Assembly: GCA_903861125.1 (NCBI GenBank)
Contig: CAIOTF010000013.1
Location: 92,407-124,406 of the forward strand
Length of the DNA: 32,000 nucleotides
Reading direction: 5' to 3'
Source of the DNA: an uncultured Ignavibacteriota bacterium
Lineage (GTDB): Bacteria > Bacteroidota > Ignavibacteria > UBA10030 > UBA8401
The translations under genes and the position numbers were made by a program. Below the pieces are notes generated by a model. That model searched no databases, was not told the DNA's origin, and saw only the letters and a list, made by a program, of their open reading frames with translations. Each line of letters starts with the position of its first letter. Position 1 is the first letter of the stretch. Shown one piece after another: positions 3,001 to 26,113 of this stretch.

Positions 3001-4496
3001 GCTTCAACAGGCTTATTATTGTCAGCACCGATACCCTGTCCGATCATCCGCCGGTTGATGGCACAAACTACACGGCGAACCCGGTATTCATGGCCGGTTC
3101 AATTCTCGGTCCGAACAGTTCTGTTGTGTACGGTGCGAACGGCACTTCGTGTGTTCTTACGGGATTGTTGCCGGATACCAAACATATTGTGACAGTGTAC
3201 GAATATAACGGGGAAGCAGGAACCGAAAACTATTTGACAGTAACGAAAACGCAGAAAGAATTCATAACGATGGTTGAAGCGCCGGTGTCACTTTCACCTG
3301 TGGACAAGGCAATCGATCAATCGTCAACACCGACTTTCGTCTGGAAGAAGTCACGCAATGCGGAAAAATATCTTCTTCAGGTGGCTTTGAACAAGGAATA
3401 TACCGGCACAGTTATTTCTGATACGGTCATCACCGATACAACATTCCACATGCCGATCACGCAGGCACTGAAATACGATACGCTGTATTATTGGAGAGTG
3501 GCGGGAATCAATTCCCGTGGCAGAGGTGATTTTTCTTCGGCATGTTCGTTTAGCACAGCTTCGCCGCCAAAGCTTCTTGTTGGTACAAGCCGTTTAAATT
3601 TTGGTCCGAAACAGATACATAACAAATATCAGATAAGTGTTGTAGTGCGGAACAATTCAATTACACCGCTAACGTTGGACTCTGTTCATTGTGCAACTGC
3701 TGGTTTTTCGGCGAGTATCTCTGTTCCGATGCTCACCCGCGTTGATTCATCGCTTGTGACGATTTCGTTCAGTCCGGATACTATCGGCATGTATGTAGAC
3801 ACGGTCATCGTCTATAACAATTCCGTTGACCGGTTGCTGCGTATTCCTGTTGCAGGAACTGCCCCGGCGGCATTGTTCACATCAAACAATGAATTTGATT
3901 TCAAAGAGGCTCAAGTCCGGCAGTTAAGCGAAAAAGTATTTTATATAACAAATTCATCCCCCAATGTGCTGAGGATCGATTCGATGATGAATCGGCTGCA
4001 TCAATTCGTGGTTGCGGTGGATTCTTTTCCCATTGTCATTGCCCGGGGTGATACATTCCACCTGAAGCTTCGGTGCACACCGGATTCGCTGAAAGAATTG
4101 GTTGATACACTGTATGCCTATACGAACGGAAATCCGGGAATATCCAAAGTGGTTATGAAAGCGCATGCTACGAATGTTTCGAAGGAAGATGAGAAGACTC
4201 CTGAAGTATTCACGCTGCAGCAGAATTTTCCGAATCCGTTCAATCCTAGCACAACCATAAAATTTGGTCTCACGCAGGATGCTGTTGTCTCACTGAAGAT
4301 GTATGATATTCTCGGCAGACAGGTGGGCATGCTGTTGAACAACGATCTGTTGACTCCCGGCTCGTACCGTTATGTGTGGGATGCCGGCCATTTGCCAAGC
4401 GGCGTTTATTTTTATCAGATTATTGCGGCAACGGTATCCGGAAATGTAAAAACCAACATCTTTAATGAAGTGCGAAAATTGCTTCTTGTTAAATAG
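1..4496 (+). CDS. Giant modular secreted/cell-surface protein, 5'-truncated by the window edge. It is an array of FN3-like and Ig-like modules ending in a T9SS (Por_Secre_tail) sorting domain.
   Basis: Frame 3 is open from nt 3. SAGNNVTVTGLKVGTTYYFAVYEFNG..ENYL precedes the GTG listed at 177 and repeats the module motif, so the true start lies upstream of the window. The protein contains repeated ~105-aa modules plus two PapD/ASPM-like beta-sandwich modules (LNFGPKQIHNKYQISVVVRNNS.., FDFKEAQVRQLSEKVFYITNSS..). The C-terminus is FPNPFNPSTTIKF...SGVYFYQI...LLLVK. Confidence 0.85.
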   Translation, partial: SAGNNVTVTGLKVGTTYYFAVYEFNGPADGVENYLTTSPLTGGSSTLTATPVTPASNIVFSNVTSSSMTIGWSNGDGTKRVVLVKSGNSVDGEPIDGITYTASTTFGSGTEIGTGNYTIYNSSSNSVTVNGLLPNTVYSVAVYEYKGTSGNENYLLDNPGTGSKTTLASLPGTQSSALVFTTVGPKTLTMNWTKGTGASRLVVMKAGNAVDTDPVDATSYSANTLFGSGTQIGSGNYVVYNGTGNSVSVSNLLINTTYHVAVYEYNGSGEAINYLTPSTVAENTTTATPTVTLSKTSLTNFGSVIVGTNSSEQSYTVSGANLLGNITVTPPTGFQISTTSGSGFDSAAITLIPAAGTVPATTIYARFSPSVSGSTSKTITHSSDSSVTKTVSVIGTGEGASIYITGSYMDFGKIVVNEVSAEQSYKVSASNVIGNVVITPPSGFQISRKQGGIFVPTNPITLTPSGNAVAQTDIYVRFAPGSAGNFLDSIVHSSTGTSNVSLSVTGTGIIKPTSGDSALQFSSVGPKTITLSWKKGNGINRIVVVKEKVTVDALPEDNTTYTANPIFGQSSEIGLKNYVVYNGTGTYVTVSGLQPNTMYYFSIYPYNGTPGSEKYLTDNVGDSSQSTSEPTIVITGALASFGNVHAGEISAVQNYSVSGTNLVNGISIVPPEGFQVSLASSGPFIGSNSSLALSPNNQVIDPTTIYVRCTPLTGGEKRDSISHVSTGSTTRYAPVSAYSIVEPTIPSSAIIFSSVKPTSMTITWKKGNGTKHLVFLGTDSISNPLPEDRMHYPSSFQYGEGASLTSNIFAVQSDSSNTVTVTHLTPNKKYYCAVFEYNGDSTSADYLTSSYASASQRTQLPVILVEGTLGLFDKIERNTTSGEKNYTVSGSALMNNIIITPPDGFQISLTSGLDFRSLNPITLINTDGIVSATAIYVRFAPTVVRVYSDSIMHSSAGATTIFSQVHGSCIASEPTKQASSIVVSSIGSATAAVVCTEGNGFNRLIIVSTDTLSDHPPVDGTNYTANPVFMAGSILGPNSSVVYGANGTSCVLTGLLPDTKHIVTVYEYNGEAGTENYLTVTKTQKEFITMVEAPVSLSPVDKAIDQSSTPTFVWKKSRNAEKYLLQVALNKEYTGTVISDTVITDTTFHMPITQALKYDTLYYWRVAGINSRGRGDFSSACSFSTASPPKLLVGTSRLNFGPKQIHNKYQISVVVRNNSITPLTLDSVHCATAGFSASISVPMLTRVDSSLVTISFSPDTIGMYVDTVIVYNNSVDRLLRIPVAGTAPAALFTSNNEFDFKEAQVRQLSEKVFYITNSSPNVLRIDSMMNRLHQFVVAVDSFPIVIARGDTFHLKLRCTPDSLKELVDTLYAYTNGNPGISKVVMKAHATNVSKEDEKTPEVFTLQQNFPNPFNPSTTIKFGLTQDAVVSLKMYDILGRQVGMLLNNDLLTPGSYRYVWDAGHLPSGVYFYQIIAATVSGNVKTNIFNEVRKLLLVK
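160..3239 (+). repeat. Intragenic protein-level module array in the order A-A-B-B-A-B-A-B-A. The copies are diverged and are not identical DNA repeats.
   Basis: A modules are FN3-like, with the signature W.KG.G..R.V..K........P.DG..Y.A...FG.G..IG..NY.VYNG.GNSV.V.GL.PNT.Y..AVYEYNG....NYL. They lie at approx nt 160-476, 522-827, 1539-1850, 2232-2546 and 2922-3239, and one more is partly visible at nt 3-150. B modules are Ig-like, with the signature FG.V.VG..S..Q.Y.VSG.NL.GNI.ITPP.GFQIS......IYVRF.P. They lie at approx nt 867-1190, 1203-1526, 1890-2216 and 2580-2909. A distinct module (TPTFVWKK...YLLQVA...YYWRVAG) lies at ~3273-3557. Confidence 0.7.
4206..4493 (+). other. T9SS C-terminal sorting domain (CTD) of the giant protein
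   Basis: FTLQQNFPNPFNPSTTIKFGLTQDAVVSLKMYDILGRQVGMLLNNDLLTPGSYRYVWDAGHLPSGVYFYQIIAAT...KLLLVK matches the remembered Por_Secre_tail (TIGR04183) pattern QNYPNPFNP.T.I.Y.L.....V.L.IYD..GR.V..L......G.....WD......SGVYFY.L. Confidence 0.85.
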
Positions 4497-4527
4497 CGCA
4501 TGCTGAGTCAATAAAAAAATAGATTCA

Positions 4528-5679
4528 ATGTATACAATTACTCTTGCGGGAAAACACTGTATGATAAAACCAACGAACCATTATTTCCGAATTCTGCCGA
4601 TCGTTTGGCTGCTGATGTTCTGTATTGCGTATCCTCTGTCAAAAAAGGAGAAGGCTGCAGCTGCACCGGTAGAACCAAAAAAACCAATGTATGAGCAAAC
4701 GTTCGCCATGTCGCTATTTCCGATGCTGCCGGTCGCCGTGGATTCCATTCTGCCGATAATCAGCTCCTCGTCAGTCGAGGTGAGTCCGGGTATTGCGAAC
4801 CTGTTGTTCTATAAGACAAATGTCGAAGTGATCCATCAGGTTGCTTTGAATCAATCAGAGAAAAAGTTCCTTGCCACGTACTTTGAAAACAGGGTTAGTA
4901 TGGCGTTATCCCGCGATCGCCGTTTTGGGATACTGAACGGACATGATTTACGCGTTCTGAAGATCAATGCAACGGACAGTACGTTCAAGATCCGAAACAC
5001 GCAGATGGAATCCGATATTCAACAATATGCAGCCGATCACCGTATCGACGGGATATTAACGGTAGATGTCCTCATCTCTGATACAAGGGTATTTTGTTAT
5101 TTAACGATCACCGATTTAAATTTTTTGAAGATCTGGACAAAGGAATTTTCGGCAAACTATGTCGACGTCCAGCCTGATTTAGAAGCAGAATTGCAAAAGA
5201 TGATGTCGTTGAAGAAAATTACGGGTTATACCGTTGAAAACATTACACTTGCGCTGCAAAGTTCCGGAGCGTATAACGGCACGAATAAACATCCGGATGG
5301 ATCAATGAACTTTCTTACGCTCGGGTACCGCTTCAACGTCTATTCAACCATTATCAATCGAATGAATTTTTTCATCGATTCGAGGGTTTTTTATGGTCTT
5401 AGGCTTGCGAACTTCAGTTATGCGTTCCAACCCGGCCTCTCGTTCGAATTATTGAAGAATGAAGAGGTGGGACCCCGGCTGCTCACTCTGGACCTGTCAT
5501 ACGGATATCACATTATTCCAAAGGAATTTTTATCGTCCTATATGGTAGGTCTTAGTCTCAATATGAGCCGTGACATCGGACTGACAGGGTACTATGGAAA
5601 GTTCAAGAACCAAAGCACAAAAGCAGCGTACCATGTGGCGGGAAACGCCTTTGGCATACAGATGAATTTTGTGTTGTAA
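4528..5679 (+). CDS. Hypothetical envelope protein with an N-terminal signal/anchor, a periplasmic domain and a predicted C-terminal outer-membrane beta-barrel
   Basis: This 383-aa ORF starts 31 nt after the adhesin stop. It has a hydrophobic N-terminus (ILPIVWLLMFCIAYPL), and ATG 4561 is an alternative start. The C-terminal ~150 aa show amphipathic beta-strand periodicity (FLTLGYRFNVY, FFIDSRVFYGL, YAFQPGLSFEL, LLTLDLSYGYHI, YMVGLSLNM, IGLTGYYGKF, AFGIQMNFVL). I recognise no named family. Confidence 0.6.
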   Translation: MYTITLAGKHCMIKPTNHYFRILPIVWLLMFCIAYPLSKKEKAAAAPVEPKKPMYEQTFAMSLFPMLPVAVDSILPIISSSSVEVSPGIANLLFYKTNVEVIHQVALNQSEKKFLATYFENRVSMALSRDRRFGILNGHDLRVLKINATDSTFKIRNTQMESDIQQYAADHRIDGILTVDVLISDTRVFCYLTITDLNFLKIWTKEFSANYVDVQPDLEAELQKMMSLKKITGYTVENITLALQSSGAYNGTNKHPDGSMNFLTLGYRFNVYSTIINRMNFFIDSRVFYGLRLANFSYAFQPGLSFELLKNEEVGPRLLTLDLSYGYHIIPKEFLSSYMVGLSLNMSRDIGLTGYYGKFKNQSTKAAYHVAGNAFGIQMNFVL

Positions 5680-5731
5680 ACGGAAACGTTATTGATACTA
5701 TAACCGAACATTTAATACGATTGCATCACTT

Positions 5732-6484
5732 ATGAAAAACATATTACAGACAATATTTCTTGTGCTACTATTTATGTCGATCGCTGCTTGTCAGGTTGAG
5801 ATCGAGGCAGAGCCGACACCCGGCAGCGAGGATAGCAATATTCCAAATCCTGCCATCGTCACAGACGGCAGCGTCGATGGCACAACTTCAAATCCTGTCA
5901 CTGTTGTTGATTCTGTGTCACAAAATAAGACTGAGGCAACGATAGCACAGGCCGCGGAAATAGACGTTTCACTTGCGACAATAAAAATAAGTTCGCCTCT
6001 CATTAACGTTCAATTGCTGATGAATCTGCTGAATGAAAAGACGGAGTTCGTGATCGAATATTCGGGAGCAGCCCCCCGGAAGATCACAAAACCAACCGAT
6101 CTTCCGGATAAAAAAGTTCCGACGGAAAAAGAAATATCGACACTTGTCAACGATGCAGTGGCAAAGAACGATTCGGCAAAAAAAGCGAAACAGGATTCCC
6201 TTGGCCGTAATTCCTATTCAAAAGAGGATGCTGATTATAACAAAGCAATGGCAAAATTGAACAGCGCTCAACGCCTGTTCTCGCGAAAGAGGTATGCCGA
6301 TGCACTCCGCGAGATCGATGGGGCAATAACGGCCGCGCCGAATATTGCACTTTCCCATTCAGTGAAAGGTTCAATTCATTATATGCTTAAGCAGAACCTT
6401 GAGGCAAAATCCAGCTGGGAGAGAGCCTTGGAATTGGATCCAGCACAGGACAATGTAAGGGCAATTTTATTACGAATGTATTAA
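5732..6484 (+). CDS. TPR-repeat lipoprotein
   Basis: It has a signal peptide with a lipobox (LFMSIAA-C). A low-complexity Thr/Ser/Pro/Lys-rich linker follows. The C-terminus has TPR-like helices (YNKAMAKLNSAQRLFSRKRYADALREIDGAI...KGSIHYMLKQNLEAKSSWERALELDPAQDNV). Confidence 0.7.
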   Translation: MKNILQTIFLVLLFMSIAACQVEIEAEPTPGSEDSNIPNPAIVTDGSVDGTTSNPVTVVDSVSQNKTEATIAQAAEIDVSLATIKISSPLINVQLLMNLLNEKTEFVIEYSGAAPRKITKPTDLPDKKVPTEKEISTLVNDAVAKNDSAKKAKQDSLGRNSYSKEDADYNKAMAKLNSAQRLFSRKRYADALREIDGAITAAPNIALSHSVKGSIHYMLKQNLEAKSSWERALELDPAQDNVRAILLRMY

Positions 6485-6497
6485 AAGGAATGATTCT

Positions 6498-7343
6498 ATG
6501 AATTCATCGTTTGCGGGTTATCTTCTCTTCATCGTTGCGGCGTATTTTCTTATTGTCGTCGGCGATCCCAACAATGCAGTGGCGATCCATCACTTTCAAA
6601 ACCTTTATTTCCCGACGGTGTTACTCCGTTATATCCATTACCCAGGCTTTATCTTTGTCACCGTGGGTGTGTATGCATCGGTATTGATCAGTTTTACGTT
6701 TCGCGAGATCAAAAGTGCTCTCCGGGCTCAAATACTGGCATTTTTCCCGACGAAACTTCAGTTCGAAAATTATATCCATACCATTAAGGAAATTGCTGAT
6801 TATTCTTCGAAGAACGATGTTGAAACTCTTGAAGAGTATGTTCAGAATATCAAATATCCTTTCCTACGGGACGGTCTTTTAATGATTGTCAACGGCTATA
6901 AAAAAGAAGAGATCGTTGAGATCCTTGAATCCCGGATTGCAAGCGAGCATGAACGGGATGAGATCGATGATGATGTCTGGCGAGCCTGCGCCCGGTACTC
7001 GCCGGGGTACGGTATGTTGGGAACCACCGTTGGTTTGATCCAAATGTTTTCTGCAAGCATTGATCCGGCAAAAGGATTCGGACCGATAATTGCAGCAATG
7101 GCGGTTGCATTTACCACCACATTATACGGTCTTGTGTATTCAAACTTTATCTATCAGCCCATCGCAGACAAAATAGAACGGCGCAATACCGATGAAATGC
7201 TATTGAAGTCCATGATCGCGGAAGGGATCATCATGTTGGCGGATAAAAGACGTCCTTCCTTTATTGAAGAAAAACTATCGACGTATCTGTACCGAAACAG
7301 GTCTCTGCGCAACTCAAAAATTCCGGAACTCAAAAAAGCATAA
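6498..7343 (+). CDS. motA: MotA-type proton-channel stator subunit (MotA/TolQ/ExbB family, 4-TM MotA topology)
   Basis: The 281-aa product has TM1 at aa ~8-23 and TM2 at ~50-68, followed by a ~100-aa charged cytoplasmic loop. Then come YSPGYGMLGTTVGLIQMF and IIAAMAVAFTTTLYGLVYSNFIYQPIADKI, the channel signature including both conserved prolines (P169, P221). The gene starts 13 nt after the upstream gene. Confidence 0.85.
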   Translation: MNSSFAGYLLFIVAAYFLIVVGDPNNAVAIHHFQNLYFPTVLLRYIHYPGFIFVTVGVYASVLISFTFREIKSALRAQILAFFPTKLQFENYIHTIKEIADYSSKNDVETLEEYVQNIKYPFLRDGLLMIVNGYKKEEIVEILESRIASEHERDEIDDDVWRACARYSPGYGMLGTTVGLIQMFSASIDPAKGFGPIIAAMAVAFTTTLYGLVYSNFIYQPIADKIERRNTDEMLLKSMIAEGIIMLADKRRPSFIEEKLSTYLYRNRSLRNSKIPELKKA

Positions 7344-7350
7344 TAATCTT

Positions 7351-8028
7351 ATGTTCAATAAAAAGAATCCGCATAAAAGAGGTGAAGAGGAGCATTGGCA
7401 GGTCAGCTATATCGATCTGCTTACGGCAATGCTTGCAGCCTTCACGTTATTGCTGGCAATGTCGAAGCCAGATCAGGCAAAGTTCGATTCCTTCGCCAGC
7501 GCATCGTCTGCGAAAAGCGTCCAACAGAATTTATCAACCGTTGCGAAGGAACTGATGGAGACCATCAGTAAGGATTCGACACTGAAGAACCAGGTGAAAG
7601 TAGTGTTGACGGATGACGGCGTAGAAGTCCGGTTCGCATCGGCGTTATTGTTCGCTTTGGGAAAGGCAAAAATGCAGCCCGATGGTTATGACGCCGTGAA
7701 ACATTTGTCTCCGGTTTTGCTGAAATTTGTTGAAGCACGAAAAGCCTATATCTCCGTTGAAGGACACACGGATGACCAGCCGATTATCGGCGGAAAAGAA
7801 TTCCGGTCGAATTGGGAACTCTCCTCATCCCGTGCTCTGGATGTGGTTCATTTTTTACAGGACTCGATGGGTTTTGTTCCACATCGGTTGTCGGGAATAG
7901 GATACGCCGATTCTCGGCCCCAAGATACAGGCCGTGATACACTTACGGGAAAATTTACGGATTACGCACGCACTCAAAACCGTCGGGTCGTGCTTCGAAT
8001 ATATTATTTTAACGGTTCAACACAATAA
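7351..8028 (+). CDS. motB: MotB-type stator subunit with a C-terminal OmpA-like peptidoglycan-binding domain
   Basis: ATG 7351 lies 7 nt after the motA stop, whereas the listed start at 7264 would overlap motA by 80 nt. HWQVSYIDLLTAMLAAFTLLLAM is the MotB TM helix and carries the invariant Asp (gat 7414-7416). The OmpA-like domain reads VEGHTDDQPI...SNWELSSSRALDVVHFL...GYADSRP...NRRVVLRI. Confidence 0.85.
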   Translation: MFNKKNPHKRGEEEHWQVSYIDLLTAMLAAFTLLLAMSKPDQAKFDSFASASSAKSVQQNLSTVAKELMETISKDSTLKNQVKVVLTDDGVEVRFASALLFALGKAKMQPDGYDAVKHLSPVLLKFVEARKAYISVEGHTDDQPIIGGKEFRSNWELSSSRALDVVHFLQDSMGFVPHRLSGIGYADSRPQDTGRDTLTGKFTDYARTQNRRVVLRIYYFNGSTQ

Positions 8029-8049
8029 CAATATCAGCGGTTAACTATT

Positions 8050-9807
8050 ATGAAAAAATCTCTCTGCTTTCTCTGTGCTGTTCTGGCCGTGCTTTTCCAA
8101 ACAGCGTTTTCTTCCACGGATGTTGAAAAAAAGAAACTCACCATTGAATCGGAATGTGAATGGAGGGTGTCCAACGAGATCCGTAAGTATTATCCATCCA
8201 TGAAATACCTTATTTCAGCCGACGCAACAGTGTTGGAAGAATATCCGGCTGAAGATACGGAAAAACCGACGCGCGACCTGATGCTTCCCGGCGTGAAAGG
8301 GTTCGAGACGAACGTCGAAAAAGAAAATGTCCGAATTTCGGTTGAGAAGATCGAGGTTCAGCTTTTAGCGGACAAATATTTCACTAAAAGTGATCCGGAA
8401 CTGCTTCGCCTGCTCGAAAATATCGTTTATTATTCGGGGAAATTGAGCCGTTCACGGGGAGATAAGGTGACCATCACGGAAATGTCATTCCCATCCTCAA
8501 CGCCGGTCCCACCCGTTAATGTCGATTCTGTTACGCAGGCGCATAAAGAATTAACCAGGAGCAAACTACCGGCAGTAGATACCACTAACGAAAATAACTC
8601 TGGTATGGGTGCAGATCTCTCGCTTATGAACATAAAATATATTGGGGCACTTTTTCTGGTCGGAGGAATCGCTATCGGGGTGCTGCTGCTTGTCCGTAGG
8701 AGTAAATTGGACGAGGTTCGGTATCAACAAAAAGTTACGGAACTGGATAATGAACGGCAGCAGAACGAGATTAAAAATGCCGAACCGAATGTGATGCTGA
8801 TGCTTCCCGAGAACATTCAGCGCGCAAATCAAAAAGCGGAATTAGAAAAGAAAAAATCCGAGATTATTACAACCGCCGTCGGAAGACCCGACGTCATTAT
8901 TGAGGTCATTCGTGAGATGCTTCGCGATCCTCAAAAGCAGGCGCAGGCGCAGACCGTCCTTTCGAGCCTTGGCCAGAGCATTATTGCCATTGTCCGCGAG
9001 CATGTAACCGAAACTGAAAATCATCAGTTGAGCAAACTTATTGCTGATGCGCCGCAGGTAGAAAACGAGATGGTCAATACCGCACTAGCCTCATTTCAGA
9101 ATGCGATCGTAATGCAAAAATTTACAATGGCAAATAATGAGAAAAGGAATCCATTTGCATTCCTTGAAAAACTGTCTGAGCCGCAGCTCTATCTGCTGAT
9201 GAAGGACGAACCTGCCGGAATCGTTGCAATGATTCTATCTCAAGTCAATCCGGGTATTGCCGGAAGTTTGCTGCGCAACCTTCCATCAATGCAGCAGGGT
9301 GAGGTTTCAATGGAATTGGTCAAACTGCAGCGGTTGACGAGCGATGCATACCTTTCCGTTGCACGCGACCTGGCTACTAAGGCCTCCAAAATACCGGCGA
9401 TCAACAATGTCCAGGTACAGGGTCCCGAATTGCTGATGGATATCTTCGACAACATGGACGAGTCGGACGAGCACTCGATCTTTGAATATATTAAAGTGAT
9501 GAATGTTGATCTGTACCGCGAGATCTCTTCGCAGCGCGTTGCCTTTACGTCCATCGATTCGTTTGACGATAAGATCATCCGGCAAATTATGAAGGATGTT
9601 CCCGGCGAAGAAATGGCTTTAGCCCTTAAGAATGCTCCGGAAAAAATTATAGAAAAATTCCTTTCTGTACTGCCGTCAAAAGCAAAGACGATATTGAACG
9701 AGCACATTGCGAATCTCGATTCCGTTTCGCTGGAAGAAGAACAAAAAGTGCGCAGAAAAATTACAAGGTTGGTACGAAATTATCTGCGGGTTGCAAAGAA
9801 AGCATAA
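8050..9807 (+). CDS. Bitopic membrane protein: signal peptide or TM1, a ~170-aa periplasmic domain, a TM helix, a coiled-coil linker, and a full-length FliG-like region (N, M and C domains)
   Basis: The N-terminus is MKKSLCFLCAVLAVLFQTAFSS. The TM helix is KYIGALFLVGGIAIGVLLLV (nt 8635-8694). The FliG_N-like part is QTVLSSLGQSIIAIVREH...VENEMVNTALASF. The FliG_M-like part is FAFLEKLSEPQLYLLMKDEPAGIVAMILSQVNPGIAGSLLRNLPSMQQGEVSMEL (compare EHPQ.IALILS.L.P..AA.VL..LP..LQ.EV). The FliG_C-like part is DDKIIRQIMKDVPGEEMALALKNAPEKIIEKFLSVLPSKAKTILNEHIANLDSVSLEEEQKVRRKI (compare LDDRSIQ.LL.EV....L.LALKGA...L.EKFL.NMS.RAA..L.DD....GPVRL..VE..Q..I). Confidence 0.75.
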   Translation: MKKSLCFLCAVLAVLFQTAFSSTDVEKKKLTIESECEWRVSNEIRKYYPSMKYLISADATVLEEYPAEDTEKPTRDLMLPGVKGFETNVEKENVRISVEKIEVQLLADKYFTKSDPELLRLLENIVYYSGKLSRSRGDKVTITEMSFPSSTPVPPVNVDSVTQAHKELTRSKLPAVDTTNENNSGMGADLSLMNIKYIGALFLVGGIAIGVLLLVRRSKLDEVRYQQKVTELDNERQQNEIKNAEPNVMLMLPENIQRANQKAELEKKKSEIITTAVGRPDVIIEVIREMLRDPQKQAQAQTVLSSLGQSIIAIVREHVTETENHQLSKLIADAPQVENEMVNTALASFQNAIVMQKFTMANNEKRNPFAFLEKLSEPQLYLLMKDEPAGIVAMILSQVNPGIAGSLLRNLPSMQQGEVSMELVKLQRLTSDAYLSVARDLATKASKIPAINNVQVQGPELLMDIFDNMDESDEHSIFEYIKVMNVDLYREISSQRVAFTSIDSFDDKIIRQIMKDVPGEEMALALKNAPEKIIEKFLSVLPSKAKTILNEHIANLDSVSLEEEQKVRRKITRLVRNYLRVAKKA

Positions 9808-9847
9808 CCGTGAATGCCGTAACACATTCACGCGTGCAACAATAATA

Positions 9848-9895
9848 CTCCGCAGTTTTCCGAACGATCTCATCGGATCTGCGGAGGTGTTTTTA
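9848..9895 (+). terminator. Rho-independent terminator closing the 1-9807 block
   Basis: The outer stem is a perfect 8 bp, CTCCGCAG (9848-9855) with CTGCGGAG (9879-9886). The inner stem is 5 bp, TCCGA (9859-9863) with TCGGA (9873-9877). GTGTTTTT follows. A second hairpin, CGTGAATG/CATTCACG (9809-9832), lies just after the stop codon. Confidence 0.75.
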
Positions 9896-10252
9896 GGAAA
9901 GTGTAGATGATTGCACGAACAGCATAATGCATAACCCTGTCTATCCTGCATTCACCGATGCATTGTTGTCGAGCACCTCATTTCAATAATTATTTTGTAT
10001 TGCCTCCGTATTTGTTTCGGACGATAGATATTCCGAAGTAGAAAACTATTTTTCCCCCCGTTACCATCCTTCATCACTTACATTCAATTGTTTGCCCCCT
10101 CGGGCAGCTCTGTTCTTTCCGCCTGTCGTTCAATGAATTACGTATCTGCGTAGTGTAAATTTTAATTTAAAAAATTGTAAACAATTGTTGACAGAAATAA
10201 TTTCTGGATACCAAAAATCTTTGTTTTTCCGCTATTTTGGCCATATTTGTTC

Positions 10253-10268
10253 TGGCACGATGATTGTG
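10253..10268 (+). promoter_or_regulatory. Sigma-54 (-24/-12) type promoter candidate upstream of the MerR-like gene
   Basis: TGGCACgatgaTTGTg has the -24 GG and the -12 TTG at the canonical spacing (consensus TGGCAC-N5-TTGCW), but the -12 C is replaced by T. It is intergenic, 139 nt upstream of ATG 10407. A sigma-54 activator gene is present in the same block. Confidence 0.5.
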
Positions 10269-10406
10269 ACATTATAATATGATGCTAAGAACGATTCAGC
10301 ATCGACTAAAAAAAACCGATACGTTTTTTCTCATGCTTTCTCTTGATAATGTATCCCGGAAAATTTACCGGTCTGTTTTAACAACTTTCAACACAGGATC
10401 TATACC

Positions 10407-11264
10407 ATGCAAAAAGTGATGTTTACAACAGATGAAGTTGCGAAACTGTTGAACGTGAATAAGTCTACCATAAAGCGCTGGACAAATGAAGGGAAAATAC
10501 ATTGTGAGCGTACTCCGGGTCAGCATCGGAAATTCAGCAAGGAAGATGTATTGGAATTTTCAAAGAAAAACAATTATCAGGTTGAGAAAATACACAAGGA
10601 ATTTTACGTCGATGATGATTCTACGTTGATGAAACAGTTGATTGTGCAAAACGAGGGCAATGCATTTCGTTCAATCATATTTTCATCCTCTCTTAAGAGA
10701 GAGCAGCAGGAACTCATGAGCATTATCAAAAAATTGTATACAGAAAATATTGCCTATAAGGTAATTCTTCGCGATTTCATTCTTCCTGTGATGACGAAAC
10801 TCGACCGGATCGAATCGATCGGCAAAATTGATGAAAAAAGGTGCCTGGTTGCTAAAAACACTATCGGAAATTCAATGGTTGCCTTCACCGACAGTGTTCC
10901 CAGATTAAAACGGCGCAGTTCGGTTGCAGTTCTTTTTTCATTCGATGTCTCGCTCGAAAATGACATAAAAGTAATTGAATCGAAACTTGAGGTCGATGGC
11001 TACCTCGTTATTAATCTCGGCATCCAGTATTCCTGGACAACGGTAAATCAATGGATGGTTAAAAATGATTCCAACATCTTGCTTTGCCTGGTGAAGCATT
11101 CGAAAAACGAAAATCAGCACCACAGTAATATTTCTGCGTTGGAGCGGATCAGCGAAGACCGCAATATGCTGTTTTTATGCGGGACAACAAAAATGTTCAT
11201 TGACATGGATCTGGAATATGTGGGGAAATTATACAAATCGCAAAAAGTGTTAGAAGTAGCGTAA
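10407..11264 (+). CDS. MerR/excisionase-type HTH regulator with a C-terminal B12-binding-like domain (four-helix bundle plus Rossmann-like) that lacks the cobalamin His ligand
   Basis: The HTH is FTTDEVAKLLNVNKSTIKRWTNEGKIHCERTPGQHRKFSKEDVLEF. The C-terminus follows a CarH/LitR-like layout (ILRDFILPVMTKLDRIESIGKIDEKRCLVAKNTIGNSM...VAVLFSFDVSLENDIKVIESKLEVDGYLVINLG...ILLCLV). DVSLEN occupies the position where D/E-x-H-x-x-G is expected. Confidence 0.55.
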   Translation: MQKVMFTTDEVAKLLNVNKSTIKRWTNEGKIHCERTPGQHRKFSKEDVLEFSKKNNYQVEKIHKEFYVDDDSTLMKQLIVQNEGNAFRSIIFSSSLKREQQELMSIIKKLYTENIAYKVILRDFILPVMTKLDRIESIGKIDEKRCLVAKNTIGNSMVAFTDSVPRLKRRSSVAVLFSFDVSLENDIKVIESKLEVDGYLVINLGIQYSWTTVNQWMVKNDSNILLCLVKHSKNENQHHSNISALERISEDRNMLFLCGTTKMFIDMDLEYVGKLYKSQKVLEVA

Positions 11265-11391
11265 TATATGTCTATCTCAGCGTACTACTTCCGTATCAAC
11301 GTTGGTTTACAGAAAGGGCAACAATGGTTGCCAATCGACTCCGGAAAAAAAATAAAGCGTTGATATTAAGCCAAAAAGAGCAAAAATGGAT

Positions 11392-11407
11392 TGGCACAAG
11401 GTTTGAG
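11392..11407 (+). promoter_or_regulatory. Sigma-54 (-24/-12) type promoter candidate upstream of the small ORF
   Basis: TGGCACaaggtTTGAg has the canonical GG-to-TTG spacing. It lies 37 nt upstream of ATG 11444, which leaves room for a short leader carrying AGGAGG. Confidence 0.55.
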
Positions 11408-11443
11408 TATGATATAGTATACTTATAGAAAGGAGGGTGAAAC

Positions 11444-11587
11444 ATGGTTTACATTTTACTGATACTTGCATACTTCGCGATACTATTGTTCTTCTCACGG
11501 TTTTTTGCATTTCTGAAGGGATGCGACGATTCAATGGCTCAGACAAGCGGCAATATAGAATTATCGGATAGTTCAGCTGTGAAATAG
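11444..11587 (+). CDS. Small (47 aa) single-TM membrane peptide, absent from the supplied ORF track because it is shorter than 60 aa
   Basis: A perfect SD, AGGAGG (11431-11436), lies 7 nt before ATG 11444. The translation is MVYILLILAYFAILLFFSRFFAFLKGCDDSMAQTSGNIELSDSSAVK*. The N-terminus is a hydrophobic helix and the tail is polar. A sigma-54-like promoter precedes it. Confidence 0.5.
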   Translation: MVYILLILAYFAILLFFSRFFAFLKGCDDSMAQTSGNIELSDSSAVK

Positions 11588-11639
11588 AATTAGAATGTGA
11601 CGGGTAAGACTATTGGCAGTATAACAGAAAGGTTTGTAC

Positions 11640-12119
11640 ATGAATACTCGATTATGGGATCACACTGAATTTAAGGACAATGCGGTAGTTGTGTGTGAGG
11701 ATGCCGGACTTAACAACTATCTCAATCAATTTTTGAAGTTCATCGATATGTCGTATGAAGAGATGTCGGCTGATAAGTTGGTCGAATCGATCCCCGGATT
11801 ACGTGACAAAAAGATGTCCATGATCATCTTTGAAGGAAAAGAGAACATTAAAACCATCATGAACAAGCGGTATCTTCTCCGGCGGGATCATCCGGATATG
11901 CAGTTCATCATCCTGCTGGATGAACCGGCGGAATCCGAAACCGTGAGCGAGGATAAAAATTTTCAAGATGTTAAATTTTTGCATAAGAAAGATGTTCTTC
12001 AGAAGATCTCATTATTCCTTGGATATGTGTACTCATCCAAAAAATATTCGGGAACACCAAATAGTAAGGCATACGCGAAAAATATTTCGGATCATCATAG
12101 AGTTGATATGTATGTGTAG
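11640..12119 (+). CDS. Receiver-like (pseudo-receiver) domain protein
   Basis: ATG 11640 is the probable start, because the listed start at 11634 is TTG. The sequence shows the alternating beta/alpha pattern of a REC fold (AVVVCEDAG / LNNYLNQFLKFI / MSMIIFEG / MQFIILLDE / VKFLHKKD). Glu (gaa 11832-11834) occupies the position of the phospho-acceptor Asp. The family call is weak. Confidence 0.35.
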   Translation: MNTRLWDHTEFKDNAVVVCEDAGLNNYLNQFLKFIDMSYEEMSADKLVESIPGLRDKKMSMIIFEGKENIKTIMNKRYLLRRDHPDMQFIILLDEPAESETVSEDKNFQDVKFLHKKDVLQKISLFLGYVYSSKKYSGTPNSKAYAKNISDHHRVDMYV

Positions 12120-12233
12120 CGGCAATGGCCCGGCAAGGTTCACGTATGCGCAGCAGAAGTAATTGTACAAAAGAATTGCGATGTTGAGATATATAAATTG
12201 TTTACGCAGTCAAGTAAAAACAAGGCACCAAAC

Positions 12234-13373
12234 ATGAGTAAGGAATACCCAAAAGTATCAGTGAATCCCGAAGGCAGGACTATTAACAATATTCTTATCA
12301 TTGATGATGACGAGTTATGGTTACAAATGCTCGATGTTGAGTTGAAGCATCTCAACTATACCGTGTATTGCAGCACCGGAAAAGAAACAATTGATGACTA
12401 CAAAGGGAAAAAAATCGATTTTATTCTGTGCGACATTCATATGGATGGCAAGAGCGGCTTTGATTTGTTAGAAGAGATCCGTGTTAATAATAGAATGTCG
12501 ATGATCCCGTTCGTATTAATGTCCGGCATGATGGATCCTTTCGTTATCCGTCGAGCAATGTGGCTTGGCGCTGATGATGTGCTGGAAAAACCGTTTTCTA
12601 TTAATGATCTCATCAACGTCTTCAACGCGCAAGCCGAAAGGATTGCAAGGATCCACAAGTATGCCGAAGAGCGTCTTGATACACTTCGGTCAAGCATTCA
12701 AAAAGTATTTCCATCCGAACTGTATAATTCGCTCCACATTATATCCGGAAATTCGTATATCCTTACAGAACTGACGGAGGAGATAGACCAACGTAAGCTG
12801 AAAAGGATCGGCAATTCTATCACTAAGGGAGCAAATCAGCTGCACACCATTTTTGACAATATTTCGCTGTACACTCACCTTCTAACGAACAAGGACGTCT
12901 TTGCAAAACTCTCCAAAGAATCATTCGCCTATGATTCCGGAATGGTGATTGAGAATGTGTGCAGAAATACGGCGAAGAAATATGAACGGGAGCATTGCCT
13001 GAAGATGCAAAACAATTTCAGCACTCAGGTCCGCATTGCACGGGAATACCTTGAAAAGGTTATAACCATTGTGGTGGATAATGCATTCAAGTTCTCACAG
13101 ATTGACAGCATCGTTTACGTTGATGTTAAAGAGGATAGCTCACTGTTAAAAATTACGGTGGTTGATAATGGCGACGGTCTAAACGAAGATCAATTATCTC
13201 AGATAGGTCCATTTATGCAGTTTGACAAAAATACCTACCAGCAGAGGGGTATTGGTCTTGGGATATCACTTGCAAAACTTATTGTTGAACTTCATTCAGG
13301 CATTATATCCTTTACCTCGCAAAAGGGTCAGGGTACTACTGTTTCAATCATACTTCCTATTCTACCAAAATAA
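12234..13373 (+). CDS. REC-first hybrid kinase: receiver domain, degenerate DHp and HATPase_c
   Basis: ATG 12234 is the probable start, because the listed start at 12198 is TTG. The REC domain reads ILIIDDDE...DFILCDIHMDGKSGFDL...LGADDVLEKPFS. The HATPase part has N box VVDNAFKFS, G1 box VDNGDGL and G2 box GIGLGISLAK. The H-box position reads FPSELYNSLHIISG rather than SHELRTPL..I.G. Confidence 0.8.
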   Translation: MSKEYPKVSVNPEGRTINNILIIDDDELWLQMLDVELKHLNYTVYCSTGKETIDDYKGKKIDFILCDIHMDGKSGFDLLEEIRVNNRMSMIPFVLMSGMMDPFVIRRAMWLGADDVLEKPFSINDLINVFNAQAERIARIHKYAEERLDTLRSSIQKVFPSELYNSLHIISGNSYILTELTEEIDQRKLKRIGNSITKGANQLHTIFDNISLYTHLLTNKDVFAKLSKESFAYDSGMVIENVCRNTAKKYEREHCLKMQNNFSTQVRIAREYLEKVITIVVDNAFKFSQIDSIVYVDVKEDSSLLKITVVDNGDGLNEDQLSQIGPFMQFDKNTYQQRGIGLGISLAKLIVELHSGIISFTSQKGQGTTVSIILPILPK

Positions 13374-13639
13374 TCCGTATACACCCATAATTCTTCATAC
13401 GTCACAATTAGGACGGAGAAGTGTGTGGTAACGGATTTTCCACCAAGAGTGTCTTTGGCTTGATGGAACGTCGGTTCATCCATCTCATCCCCAATTTGCC
13501 TTCTCCTGCAGTATCTCGCTCCAACGTACACTATTTTTCTTTTCAACGGAACACCCTGGTTCTGCCTCTTGTAAACATAAAATAATCCGGCACATCCGAA
13601 TAGCTCATGAATAATGTCGGTGATGGAAATTGATGCCAA
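13328..13639 (-). CDS. Possible small GIY-YIG (URI)-like nuclease domain ORF, or a remnant of one
   Basis: GLFYVYKRQNQGVPLKRKIVYVGARYCRRRQ...VLIVTYEELWVYTDY resembles GIY...YIG...R...E (compare UvrC GVYRMYD..G.VIYVGKAKDLRKRL...TEALLLE.NYIK). The start codon is TTG. The 3' end overlaps the convergent kinase gene by 46 nt. An in-frame TAG separates it from ORF 13646-13873. Confidence 0.3.
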   Translation of the reverse strand: MASISITDIIHELFGCAGLFYVYKRQNQGVPLKRKIVYVGARYCRRRQIGDEMDEPTFHQAKDTLGGKSVTTHFSVLIVTYEELWVYTDYFGRIGSMIETVVP

Positions 13640-13952
13640 CTTTTTCTATCCGCTTCGTCGTGTCTTACGTATTTGATCATTTTTTAGACATATTGAATAT
13701 TGTAACGGGCTATGACCACTAAAGTTGACAGAGGAATACAATTCCCGCGACGTAGAAAAAATCAGTAGTAATGCTTCTTTTTCATTCGTATTCGATGTTT
13801 TAATGTCTGTCAGTAATTCACTCCATAGATCTTGATAATGTATAGTATTGTACATCTGTAAATATGTAAACAAAATTCTACAATCGTCAACAGACGTTTA
13901 CGAAAGTAATCAAAAATTTACAGTATTTATGGACATTTTTTTTATTAAAACT

Positions 13953-13968
13953 TGGCGTAATTTTTGAT
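13953..13968 (+). promoter_or_regulatory. Weaker sigma-54-like promoter candidate upstream of the giant kinase
   Basis: TGGCGTaatttTTGAt has GG and TTG at the canonical spacing but deviates at -22/-21 and in the -12 GC. It lies 42 nt upstream of ATG 14010. Confidence 0.3.
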
Positions 13969-14009
13969 ATATTGTTTAACTCGATGAGTAACCTACAATA
14001 AGGATAGAT

Positions 14010-17000
14010 ATGTCAGATTATGTTTTTAGGGCGCGTAAGCCAATTCTACAGTCCGAGTTCACAATTTTTAGCGTATTTGCTAAAAGCAATGAGATCATCT
14101 GTTGGTTCCATAAACAAGGGTTTCAACTTTCTCATTTTGCGGATAATCGCTTAGCGTCTAATCCGGCAATGAAGCAATTGATAGGTGTTATTGTCGAAAA
14201 GGTCTTTCCTGCTTCACTCGGGGCGAAGATAAAAGAGCTGATTGTCGATTCCCATAAAAAGGGAGCGGCCGAAAAGCTTATTGTTGAACTTGAACTTGAT
14301 GGAACGCTTGCAATCTTTGAACTGAGGGCGATCTCTGACCGTACTTCGGATCTCGTGATGCTGATTATTACAAACATTACCGAATCGTATCATTCCCAAA
14401 CGACCATTCAGTTCCAGAAGAATTTGCATGAGCTCATATCGCAGATATCAAAAGCCCTTATTCTTGTAACGGCGGGTGATCTGGACAAGCAGATACATTC
14501 AGCGCTTGCTCAGATAGGTTCTTTGATGCAGGTTGACCGATCGTATGTGTTCCAATTGAAGCAAAATAAAAGCGTTATGGACAACACGCACGAATGGTGT
14601 AATAAAGGGGTCGATCCGCAAATTGAGAACCTTAGGGATATTCCTGCCGAGATATTCCCCTGGTGGATGGAAAAACTGAATAGGTTCGAAAATATTTCGA
14701 TACCGAATGTTTCGGAACTTCCACGTGAGGCAAAAGCAGAACGGGAAATATTGGAAGCACAGAGCATCCAATCGGTTGCCGTGGTTCCGCTTGTCTATTC
14801 TTCCGAATTGACCGGTTTCATCGGCTTTGATGCCGTCAGTCATCCAAGGTCATTCCCAAAAGAAACAATGGATCTTCTGCGTCTGCTGGGTGACTCCATT
14901 GTGAATGCCATGGAAAGAATTAAAAATGACACGCTAGTCGCTACAAACGAGCAATTGTTCCATAATGTTGTGGACAATGTTCCTGCACTTGTGTGGATGA
15001 CAGACAGCGATCAGCATTTTACTTTCTTTAACAAAGGGTGGCTCGATTTTACCGGACGACCGTTCGAACAGGATTGCCGGGAAGGCTGGTTTCAGTATAT
15101 CCATCCAAATGAGAGGGAGGATTTCATTTCTGCGTTCCGGAATGCATTCCGAGACCGCAAATTATTTACGATGCAGTTTAGGTTTTTACGCAACGACGAT
15201 ATGTACCGCTGGATTCTGATCAATGCGCTTCCGAATATGACCCGCACCGGGGAATTTGTCGGTTTTATAGGTTCATGTACCGATATCACCGTGCAGAAGG
15301 AGAATGAATACAAATATCGATTAATGTCCAAACGAATTGATATTTCAAACTCTTTGTCCGAAACCCACGACCATTTTAACACTGCGGCAAATTTATTGCA
15401 GCATTACCTTGAATTGACGCTGAACCTGTTTAGTTTCGACGGCGGCGGTATTTATCTTGTGGATGCTGAACGTGTTAAAGCGGATTTGGTTACATCGCTG
15501 AATTTACCTTCTGATTTTATCAGTCAGGTGGGTTCATTGCCGGTGGATATTGAACCGTACAAAAGTGTATTGATGAAGGGGAAACCGAATTATTTTGAAG
15601 ATGTGCCGGGAAAAAAATATGGTTTTAACTCGCTTGCATCAATTCCCTTCTATGTGGGGAAAAGCATCGGCGGTTGCATTAACATTGCAACGCAGCGAAC
15701 GCATCCGTTTGCGGATGACGATAAGAAAGTATTATTATCAATAGCAGAGGATATCGGGAAAGCGATTTATGCGCAAAAAATTGAAGAAACACTGCGGCAA
15801 AACAAGAAGAATGTTGATACGCTCTTTAATACTATCAACGACTTTTTATTTGTTCTGGATGAAAAAGGGTTTATTCTTGAGGTGAACAATGTTGTTCTGC
15901 GCCGCCTGGGATATTCTTTAGAAGAATTGCGCGCAATGCATGTAATCCAACTGCACGTTCCTGAACGAAGGGACGAAGCACAGCGGATCGTCGGAGAAAT
16001 GCTGGCCGGAACGACCGAATATTGTCCGGTGCCACTGATCGCAAAAGATGGAACGAGGATCGATGTTGAAACAAATATTGTATTGGGAAAGTGGAATAAT
16101 CAAAATGTAATTTTCGGTGTTACGCGCGATATCAGCGAACGGAAACGAACAGAAAAACGGCTGTATCAAACGGAAGAACGCAACCGCGCTCTTCTTGAAT
16201 CTTCGCCGGATGCCATCGCCTTTTTTGATAAGGACGAGGTCATTGCGTTTACCAATCAGGAATGCGTGCTTCTGCTTGGATATTCATCGAGCGAAGAAAT
16301 GCTGCAGATGAAGGCAGCCGATCTTTTCTCCGCCAATGACATCGAAGTATGGAATTCTGTTTTTTCGGAGATATTTGAAAAAAGGCATGTTAAAAACATT
16401 AAGACCGATCTTGTGAAGAAGAATGGTGCTATTTTTTCTTCGGAAATATGCTCATCGGCTATCTATGATGTGAACGGTCAACCCGAAGGCGTTATTGTCA
16501 CCATCCGTGATATTACGGACAGGCTGACCGCAGAAGAGCATTTACGGAAAAGTGAAGAAGAGAATAAAGCTATTGTCGATGCAGTACCGGACCTCATGTT
16601 CCGGATCGACCATTCAGGTATTTTTCTGGATTGCAAAGTGCCGAATTTCAGCGATCTGTATGTTCCCCCGGAAATGTTTTTAGGGAAAAACATCAAAGAA
16701 GTTCTTCCGCCTGATATATCTCAACAAGCCATGCGGGCAATGGAAAATTCATTCCGGTCAAAAGAAATGGAGCAGTTTGAATATTCATTGCCGATCGACG
16801 GGAAAACCCGATATTTTGAAGACAGGATTGTTGCGCTTTCCAATAATGAGGCTCTTTCTATTGTCAGAGACATCACCAATAGGAAAGTAGCAGAAATAAA
16901 CTTGCACCAAAGTGAACAACGATTGAATTATGCGTTTGTAGTGAGCAGCGACGGCATGTGGGACTGGGATTTGAAAGAAAACACAGTGTTTTATTCTCCG

Positions 17001-26078: not shown

Positions 26079-26113
26079 AAATTTAGACTCCGATTGATGA
26101 TTAATTGTTCATC

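Follow-up and report, generated by a model that had tools for sequence, protein, structure and literature searches.

The nearest precedent for the protein described here is the FliF-FliG fusion of the Chlamydiaceae. To our knowledge, FliF, FliG and MotAB have hardly been described outside the flagellum, and the Chlamydia case is an orphan. The chlamydial fusion has ~330 amino acid residues (aa), with an RBM2-like segment (RBM, ring-building motif), one unassigned RBM-like segment and no SpoIIIAG-like RBM3 (Bergeron 2016, PeerJ, PMC4768692). It carries two transmembrane (TM) helices and a FliG_M-like region only, has no MotAB link and is discussed as a protein that may partner the injectisome (PMC4768692). 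Here we describe a fusion gene in a 32,000-nucleotide (nt) stretch of DNA, called the window, from an uncultured Ignavibacteriota bacterium (assembly GCA_903861125.1, contig CAIOTF010000013.1, positions 92,407 to 124,406). The gene joins a reduced FliF in frame to a complete FliG, and it follows genes for a MotA-type and a MotB-type stator subunit and for two putative envelope proteins. On balance, we take the fusion to be the rotor of a minimal, MotAB-driven, non-flagellar machine.

In Salmonella, FliF-FliG fusions that were engineered or arose spontaneously form rings and functional motors (Francis 1992 and Thomas 2001, as cited in PMC4768692). Rings and motors also assemble with the Vibrio FliFG fusion, the S-ring structure of which is found under PDB 8z4d/8z4g (PMC11481574). 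Since these engineered fusions work, the covalent arrangement is mechanically viable. Ion-driven motors of the inner membrane that do work in the outer envelope include Tol-Pal, ExbBD-TonB, GldLM (type IX secretion/gliding), AglRQS-Glt and Zorya. MotAB-like 5:2 motors drive several envelope machines (overview PMC12505986).

The fusion gene and its domain layout

The fusion gene and its parts are as follows.

8050..9807, + strand: FliF(RBM3)-TM-FliF tail-FliG fusion, 585 aa, ATG start
8050..8115, + strand: signal-peptide-like N-terminus (or short TM1 equivalent), aa 1-22; hydrophobic run LCFLCAVLAVLF, then TAFS/S; no lipobox
8116..8493, + strand: single periplasmic ring-building motif of the FliF RBM3 type, aa 23-148, in the order alpha-beta-beta-alpha-beta
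8494..8637, + strand: disordered periplasmic linker of variable length, aa 149-196 (predicted local distance difference test score, pLDDT, <50; family alignment)
8638..8694, + strand: transmembrane helix, the FliF TM2 equivalent, aa 197-215, with RRSK after it (hydropathy 2.56; aligned with FliF TM2)
8806..8928, + strand: two helices homologous to the FliF C-terminal FliG-binding tail, aa 253-293 (…GRPDVIIEVIREML; hhalign)
8929..9147, + strand: FliG_N, shorter than the canonical domain, aa 294-366 (Pfam; E. coli FliG alignment)
9148..9405, + strand: FliG_M with the FliM-binding EHPQR replaced, aa 367-452 (Pfam; E. coli and T. maritima FliG alignments)
9406..9804, + strand: FliG_C with the torque helix (ALKNAPEKIIEKFLSVLPSKAKTILNEHI), aa 453-585 (Pfam, 1lkv, Foldseek)

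The hydropathy scan showed two hydrophobic segments, at aa 5-23 and aa 197-215. Lys and Arg were more numerous in the 15 residues that follow the TM helix than in the 15 that precede it in 109 of the 113 family members (mean 3.5 against 0.96). By the positive-inside rule this excess places the FliG part in the cytoplasm, and the topology check thus agreed with the cytoplasmic FliG assumed in a first-pass annotation of this DNA, which a model had made from the letters alone. The N-terminus (MKKSLCFLCAVLAVLFQTAFSS) looks like a cleaved signal peptide: its uncharged run has a median of 13 residues across the family, and small residues stand at -3/-1 in 94 of the 113 members. It lacks a [LVI][ASTVI][GAS]C lipobox, and the family alignment contains no conserved Cys. 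The periplasmic linker varies from 45 to ~110 residues across the family and could not be aligned. On the cytoplasmic side, the Gln/Glu/Lys-rich linker that had been pointed out earlier is present at aa 216-292, where Q, E and K make up 31% of the residues, and the full-length AlphaFold model showed helices at aa 253-278 and 280-292 in the FliF-tail region.

The ratio of nonsynonymous to synonymous substitutions (dN/dS) was 0.059 over the whole fusion when it was compared with the 84%-identical orthologue in locus L001, a rough value as dS is high. By region, and equally rough, it was 0.063 for the RBM and 0.025 for the tail and FliG, with the highest value, 0.147, in the periplasmic linker. 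These ratios argue that the fusion gene is functional and under strong purifying selection. An assembly or frameshift artefact was also considered, and was ruled out by this dN/dS of 0.059 and by the architecture being kept in >100 sequence clusters.

The first-pass annotation had proposed that one polypeptide joins a FliF-like ring-building module to full-length FliG. This proposal stood, with Pfam matches to FliG_N, FliG_M and FliG_C above their cut-offs and with fold and profile matches to RBM3. The peptides on which it had been built lie where they had been placed: the periplasmic stretch at aa 94-147 (nt 8329-8490), the two FliG_N strings at aa 303-315 and 337-349, and the FliG_M string at aa 386-423. 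Taken together, models and alignments describe the protein as a FliF without RBM1, RBM2 and most of the beta-collar, joined in frame to a complete FliG with the docking helix kept.

The periplasmic domain

AlphaFold models and the family alignment showed one folded periplasmic domain only, at aa ~25-148. Modelled alone with AlphaFold2 and 19 homologues, it reached a pLDDT of 81.9 and a predicted TM-score (pTM) of 0.67. The model runs through a helix, a long strand, a loop of ~30 residues, a second long strand, a helix and a strand, which is the topology of a ring-building motif. When the model was compared with the PDB by Foldseek, the best 17 matches were all FliF RBM3/collar structures (E 4.6e-5 to 1.4e-3, probability 1.0, query-normalised TM-score up to 0.56). 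They include the Salmonella entries 6scn, 6sd1, 6sd3, 8zdt, 7cg7, 8t8p, 7bk0, 8wjr and 7d84 and the Vibrio entries 8z5v and 8z4d. OsmC/Ohr proteins came after FliF, at E >1e-2, and PrgK (2y9j_Y) was found at rank 26 with E 0.03.

Profile searches pointed to the same part of FliF. YscJ_FliF_C was the top Pfam family for 16 of 19 family members (best E 3.3e-5). The query itself, matching the last 59 profile positions, scored 15.7 bits when searched whole and 18.8 bits when cut down to the domain, and the distant members P0073, P0092, P0068 and P0104 (33.0, 29.7, 26.7 and 25.6 bits) were above the cut-off. No Pfam match to YscJ_FliF, the RBM1/RBM2 region, was found in the fusion even at E up to 1. 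A profile of family aa 1-300, built from 93 of 113 sequences, was compared with E. coli K-12 FliF by hhalign and gave 93.1% probability and E 3.2e-7. The alignment was colinear and joined query 111-293 to FliF 396-549 (of 552), that is, the C-terminal half of RBM3, TM2 and the FliG-binding tail. In RBM3 alpha2-beta3, the query SRGDKVTITEMSF was aligned with KRGDSLNVVNSPF of E. coli FliF; in the FliG-binding C-terminal helix, RPDVIIEVIREML was aligned with DPRVVALVIRQWI. The TM helix and tail alone matched E. coli FliF 458-549 with 91% probability and E 9.7e-7. The real comparison scored 53.9, while reversed FliF and MotB both scored 14 and 30 shuffles that kept the TM helix scored at most 26.9. 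An hhalign match driven by the TM helix alone was ruled out by these shuffles.

The FliF beta-collar insert of ~110 aa is replaced by a low-confidence loop of ~30 aa (aa 65-94) with an invariant D..LPGV.GF. An invariant RGD is located at aa 136-138. Across 29 very divergent members, invariance is limited to five columns, LPG and RGD among them, and in E. coli FliF the LPG loop and RGD are matched by GVPGALS and KRGD, respectively.

These structural and profile matches indicate that the periplasmic domain is a ring-building motif of the FliF RBM3 type. The RBM assignment, which the first-pass annotation had called its weakest link, thus held in the AlphaFold and Foldseek analysis, where the 17 best matches were FliF, and the stretch it had singled out corresponds to beta2-alpha2-beta3 of the motif by Foldseek, by YscJ_FliF_C and by the profile comparison with controls. 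Its comparison with RBM2 of FliF and of PrgK/SctJ was not borne out, as the domain matches RBM3 and PrgK ranked 26th. In place of the two or so small periplasmic domains it had counted, there is one folded domain followed by the disordered linker at aa 149-196. With a single RBM and no lipobox, the SctJ/PrgK layout that it had suggested does not apply, and a SctJ/PrgK-like two-domain lipoprotein was rejected on these grounds together with the rank of PrgK. It had also supposed that fusion removes the need for FliF-FliG docking. The FliG-binding helix of FliF is retained just before FliG_N, so the fusion does not simply dispense with docking.

The FliG part

Pfam assigned FliG_N to aa 299-364 (E 1.7e-7, 32.2 bits, cut-off 25; profile positions 7-72 of 104), FliG_M to aa 379-449 (E 1.2e-9, 38.7 bits) and FliG_C to aa 481-577 (E 4.5e-16, 59.5 bits). 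Since all three are above their gathering scores, the match is far beyond chance. The C-terminal 336 residues matched T. maritima FliG 1lkv with E 1.4e-20, and 11 other FliG entries were also matched. Foldseek aligned the full-length AlphaFold model with the full-length FliG structures 3hjl, 8wiw and 8umx over ~310 columns at E ~1e-10. The Vibrio FliFG entry 8z4d was present among both the fold matches and the PDB sequence matches.

Alignment with E. coli FliG showed where the protein departs from the flagellar form. FliG_N is ~30 residues short, the equivalent of E. coli FliG 67-98 being missing. The FliM-binding EHPQR motif is lost: RDEHPQ of E. coli is KDEPAG here and DEPPG in the family consensus, and the R160 position is Glu. 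In the torque helix, K264 of E. coli is kept as K, R281 as K/R and D288 as E/D.

The five-gene module

Upstream of the fusion gene and on the same strand are four further genes.

4528..5679, + strand: orf383, secreted protein without known family, 383 aa, the first gene of the module and a conserved neighbour
5732..6484, + strand: TPR250, secreted tetratricopeptide repeat (TPR) protein (Pfam TPR_2, TPR_21)
6498..7343, + strand: MotA-type stator A subunit (Pfam MotA_ExbB, E 1.7e-19)
7351..8028, + strand: MotB-type stator B subunit with plug, TM Asp and OmpA-like domain (MotB_plug E 1.3e-10, OmpA E 3.1e-11)

The order is thus orf383, TPR protein, MotA, MotB and, as the last of the five, the fusion, with spacings of 52, 13, 7 and 21 bp. 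The start of MotB is likely the ATG at 7351 (225 aa), according to the homologue alignment and the recorded gene call; the mechanically derived open reading frame starts at a TTG at 7264 and overlaps MotA by 80 nt.

All MotA homologues keep the residues equivalent to E. coli Pro173 and Pro222. The near clade, L001-L021, also shares a charged loop on the cytoplasmic side, [RH]-D-[IV]-E-[ST]-L-E-[ED], which differs in L022/L023. MotB has SYIDLLTAM, which aligns in all homologues with YADFMTAM of E. coli, where the Asp is Asp32. With these catalytic residues kept, the stator looks competent. A plug and an OmpA-type domain mark flagellar rather than generic stators (PMC12505986).

TPR250 has a conserved beta-rich N-terminal motif, a variable linker and C-terminal TPR repeats, with weak NCBIfam likeness to TPR lipoproteins of the PilW/Tgl type; the copy in the window has a lipobox-like SIAAC. 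The orf383 product has a signal-like N-terminal segment, a conserved N-terminal half that looks alpha/beta, and a C-terminal half with beta-strand-like alternation that ends in a conserved [VIL][NY]F[VY]L in the alignment. No match to orf383 was found in Pfam, NCBIfam or the PDB sequences, and a collection of 5.8 billion proteins returned its own family only. The weak hints were OMP_b-brl at E 0.031 (the L026 homologue) and FlgT_M at E 0.036 (2 of 14 members). Homologues of orf383 are also encoded in a distant branch, with 376 aa in L022 (E 2e-81) and 357 aa in L026 (E 2e-9).

Related loci numbered 21, from metagenome-assembled genomes (MAGs) labelled Ignavibacteriae, Bacteroidota or 'Chitinophagaceae'. 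In each of the 17 with sufficient sequence upstream, these five genes stood in this order. The five genes form an operon that is conserved as a unit. This conserved operon of MotA, MotB and two envelope proteins, which was absent from the first-pass annotation, is the strongest functional clue.

Distribution and variant loci

The architecture was kept in 63 close proteins. The periplasmic-domain profile, searched against 1.84 billion representatives, detected 83 proteins at E up to 1e-3; ~60 of these 50%-identity cluster representatives had the RBM, TM, FliG_M and FliG_C in the same order. A look for other proteins of this architecture, as had been suggested, gave the 63 close proteins and ~60 further cluster representatives. 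The family spans >100 sequence clusters from Ignavibacteria/Bacteroidota and from Fibrobacterota-like MAGs. Public names of its members are 'FliG C-terminal domain-containing protein' or 'FliG-like protein', and the distant branch is named, for example, 'FliG-like protein [Fibrobacteres bacterium]' at NCBI.

This breadth bears on whether the protein is a decaying remnant of a flagellum, or a regulatory or ion-sensing domain of the FliG/MgtE_N kind without a mechanical role. Pfam gave a weak MgtE_N match at aa 462-551 (E 1.9e-4, under the cut-off), and for some distant members (P0104) MgtE_N outscores the FliG domains. A remnant or regulatory domain is made highly improbable by strong purifying selection in each region, by an architecture found in >100 clusters from two phylum-level groups, by strict co-occurrence with MotAB and by the retention of FliG_N, FliG_M, FliG_C and the docking helix of FliF.

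In the distant branch (L022/L023, L026/L027), the gene order is fusion, orf383-like, TPR, MotA and MotB. The flanks differ between loci. In L022/L023 the module lies between housekeeping genes, and in L026/L027 (1-9729) it directly follows rplA-rplJ-rplL-rpoB-rpoC on a closed 3.49-Mb contig. In L002 (3791-6276) it is directly downstream of ftsA-ftsZ; L003-L007, whose gene sizes and order agree, are inferred to share this arrangement. L011 has unrelated metabolic genes downstream, and the gene sizes of L010 and L013-L017 agree with it; a MerR/kinase cluster flanks the module in the window, L001, L009 and L012. The unrelated flanks also include bamA. The ftsAZ and rpoBC surroundings are unusual company for a motility-type operon.

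Some cultured Ignavibacteria are flagellated, and the fusion could in principle be the real flagellar rotor of its host, with FliF and FliG fused and shortened and the other flagellar genes elsewhere in the genome. MotA and MotB are of the flagellar type (plug, OmpA domain, best NCBIfam models MotP/PomA/MotD). As fliF and fliG are adjacent in ordinary operons, fusion would be easy, and engineered fusions are functional (PMC4768692, PMC11481574). Against this, 28 E. coli flagellar proteins searched by tblastn against 501 kb (the window and 28 loci) found only FliG, which was the fusion itself, so that no other flagellar gene was seen in 29 places. The neighbours are non-flagellar and the module occurs in housekeeping contexts. 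RBM1 and RBM2, which surround the export gate, are absent and the beta-collar is a loop; EHPQR is lost, and the FliG part is far under its equivalog cut-off. We consider a genuine flagellar rotor improbable.

Three loci show the periplasmic domain in other arrangements. In L028 (6876-14137) and L030 (661-6596), two or three tandem RBM3-like repeats are found on a separate protein (P0073, 532 aa; P0068, 452 aa), the C-terminus of which is the TPR domain of the module. Both loci also carry an extra TPR protein and a FliG protein of ~600 aa without a detectable RBM; MotA and MotB follow in L028, and the L030 contig ends before any stator gene. These fusions support a link between RBM and TPR. In L029 (6191-9278), a 392-aa protein in the orf383 position lies together with a TPR protein and with an RBM3 protein (P0092, 425 aa) whose TM helix is C-terminal. 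The 392-aa protein belongs to no known family, and homology to orf383 was not detected. A Mrp/ParA-type ATPase follows this trio. L029 may represent the periplasmic part in a form without a motor.

The L029 trio is also a point in favour of another explanation, in which the FliF/FliG protein is an energy-transducing scaffold. Ring or not, it would be a docking and activation site for MotAB without continuous rotation, and the movement, as in Tol-Pal, TonB or Agl-Glt, would serve to pull on or remodel orf383 and the TPR protein, possibly at the cell-division site. The partners in the module, a TPR protein, an OmpA-type peptidoglycan anchor and possibly an outer-membrane protein, recall those of Tol-Pal/CpoB and Agl-Glt. 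The adjacency to ftsA-ftsZ in one clade (L002, with L003-L007 inferred) and a Joint Genome Institute (JGI) label of one member, 'FliG/TolA-binding protein', point the same way, as does a periplasmic linker that is long and variable (45 to ~110 aa), unlike that of FliF. However, the elements of the flagellar torque interface are at least partly retained (FliG_C torque helix with three of its five charges, flagellar-type MotA loop, MotB plug), and the RBM3 and the FliF tail are strongly constrained (dN/dS 0.06 and 0.025). The module contains no TolA, TolB or TonB-like gene and, since the flanks differ between clades, the adjacency to ftsAZ is not general. A non-rotating scaffold is unlikely in our judgement, though less so than the other alternatives.

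A proposed mechanism

As the rotor of a minimal, MotAB-driven machine, copies of the fusion would join through RBM3 and form a ring at the inner membrane, on its periplasmic side, like FliF with its ring of ~33-34 subunits, and this ring would set a 1:1 FliG ring beneath it. Ion flow through the peptidoglycan-anchored MotA5MotB2 would turn MotA against the torque helix of FliG_C, and the ring would rotate or at least be pushed. Neither type III export nor switching would take place. The absence of RBM1/RBM2 and of the FliM motif, and of rod, hook, filament and switch genes nearby, argues that the machine is neither a flagellum nor a switchable motor. The RBM3 face, which bears the invariant LPG loop, would probably hand the work on to orf383 and the TPR protein in the outer envelope, where a possible task is the moving or assembling of a surface or outer-membrane component. 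That the five genes make up a self-contained rotary engine, free of a flagellum and driving a TPR/orf383 device of the outer envelope, is a stronger statement, and we rate its chances slightly below even. As to origin, the module could be a reduced descendant of the flagellum or, more speculatively, a relative of a motor module that predates the joining to a type III secretion system.

Several results weigh against a rotor of this kind. For the periplasmic domain, the 18.8 bits of the query on YscJ_FliF_C are under the gathering cut-off of 23.8, and the N-terminal half of RBM3 (query 4-42) was aligned at the right place (FliF 226-270) without significance. A 19-sequence profile of the domain found no FliF at E up to 10 among all PDB sequences and, in hhalign, matched E. 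coli FliF with 0.9% probability, aligned at the RBM3 start; significance came only with the 93-sequence profile of aa 1-300. In the torque helix, D289 is replaced by H/R/T and R297 is unconserved, so that two of five charges are lost. The NCBIfam equivalog for FliG, TIGR00207, matched aa 354-577 only and scored 91 bits, where the cut-off is 226.7; the best NCBIfam models for MotA and MotB, which are flagellar (MotP/PomA/MotA, MotD), all matched under their equivalog cut-offs. orf383 is possibly an outer-membrane beta-barrel, its location and fold being guesses. The L029 trio has no FliG or MotAB adjacent, so the periplasmic part may work without a motor. Finally, the hosts may own ordinary flagella too, the inspected sequence being the 501 kb of flanks.

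Genomic surroundings in the window

Upstream of the module, at 177-4496 on the + strand, are the C-terminal 1439 aa of a 2821-aa protein with fibronectin-III/Ig-like repeats and a C-terminal sorting domain for type IX secretion. The gene for this adhesin of the type IX secretion system (T9SS) ends 31 bp before the first module gene. It was considered as a part of the module and rejected, as it does not lie beside the module in other loci.

A 9-bp-stem hairpin, reported on the minus strand by the scan, is located at 9809-9832, two bases past the stop codon of the fusion gene, with a 600-bp gap after it. The hairpin may mark the end of the operon. Scans of 4300-10600 for promoters and terminators were not above shuffles, and no Rfam family and no tRNA was found in the window.

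Downstream, at 10407-23400 on the + strand, a regulatory cluster encodes a MerR-type helix-turn-helix protein, orf161, a response-regulator/kinase hybrid, a 1865-aa PAS/GAF hybrid kinase, a second response regulator-PAS-kinase and a sigma54 activator. Its first four genes also follow the module in L001, L009 and L012, and the cluster may control the module. Intergenic sigma54-like -24/-12 matches (TGGCAC-N5-TTG) were seen on the + strand at 10253-10268 and 11392-11407, upstream of the MerR-like gene and orf161, respectively. The whole window has 22 such matches against a shuffle mean of 14.5, a slight excess, and none was found ahead of the motor module within the window.

At 24615-27304 on the - strand, a GDSL-family lipase gene adjoins a gene for an outer-membrane transporter of the FadL/TodX type. 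This pair probably serves the uptake of lipids or hydrophobic substrates and is unrelated to the fusion.

Comparison with known systems

We found no published description of an RBM3-FliG fusion or of the five-gene module in the full-text literature, a coverage that mostly leaves out subscription papers. If the fusion rotates, this would be the smallest natural FliG-based motor known and a minimal system for the assembly of the MS-ring and FliG ring and for torque without a C-ring switch or an export gate. It would also give a rotary motor a new output in non-flagellar biology, and would be a test case for a modular origin of the flagellum, with the motor apart from the secretion system. Should the five genes be a self-contained engine, they would show that the part of the flagellum that generates torque can stand, and be favoured by selection, on its own. 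Without rotation, the module would represent an envelope machine of a new kind, coupled to MotAB.

The family resembles Tol-Pal, ExbBD-TonB, GldLM, AglRQS-Glt and Zorya in that an inner-membrane ion motor is encoded with envelope partners, including a TPR protein. In those machines force is transmitted through a motor extension or through a periplasmic arm of the TonB/TolA/GldM type, and none is known to use an RBM ring or FliG. The plug and OmpA-type domain found in MotB of the module are usually missing from their B subunits (PMC12505986).

Like SctJ/PrgK, the fusion is predicted to be exported by Sec and has a fold of the RBM type, a TM helix towards the C-terminus and a tail in the cytoplasm. 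SctJ, however, is a lipoprotein with two RBMs homologous to RBM1/RBM2 of FliF, whereas the fusion has no lipobox and a single motif, of the RBM3 type.

Engineered FliF-FliG fusions have the same covalent order, FliF then FliG, and the same forced 1:1 stoichiometry. They are laboratory proteins that contain full-length FliF and work in complete flagella; the present protein is natural, belongs to a non-flagellar operon and lacks two thirds of FliF's periplasmic region.

The Chlamydiaceae fusion is likewise a natural single polypeptide with a shortened periplasmic part of FliF, a TM segment and a FliG-like cytoplasmic part, in an organism or context without a flagellum. Compared with its published description, the present family has RBM3 only, the full FliG N, M and C domains, the docking helix and the link to MotAB.

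The flagellar motor of FliF, FliG and MotA5MotB2 shares with the family the RBM3 fold, TM2, the FliG-binding helix, the three FliG domains with a recognisable torque helix, and MotA and MotB of the flagellar type, which are encoded alongside. The fusion differs from it in being one polypeptide and not two, and in starting with a signal-like N-terminus and not a clear TM1. Unlike FliF, it has no RBM1/RBM2 and hence no housing for a type III export gate; the beta-collar is reduced from ~110 residues to a loop of ~30, and the periplasmic linker is long and variable. Unlike flagellar FliG, it has a shortened FliG_N and has lost EHPQR. Genes for FliM/FliN, export, rod, hook and filament are absent nearby, the partners being the TPR protein and orf383. 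The family thus keeps only the rotor-stator core, paired with new envelope partners, and the flagellar core is seen in a new, apparently non-flagellar setting.

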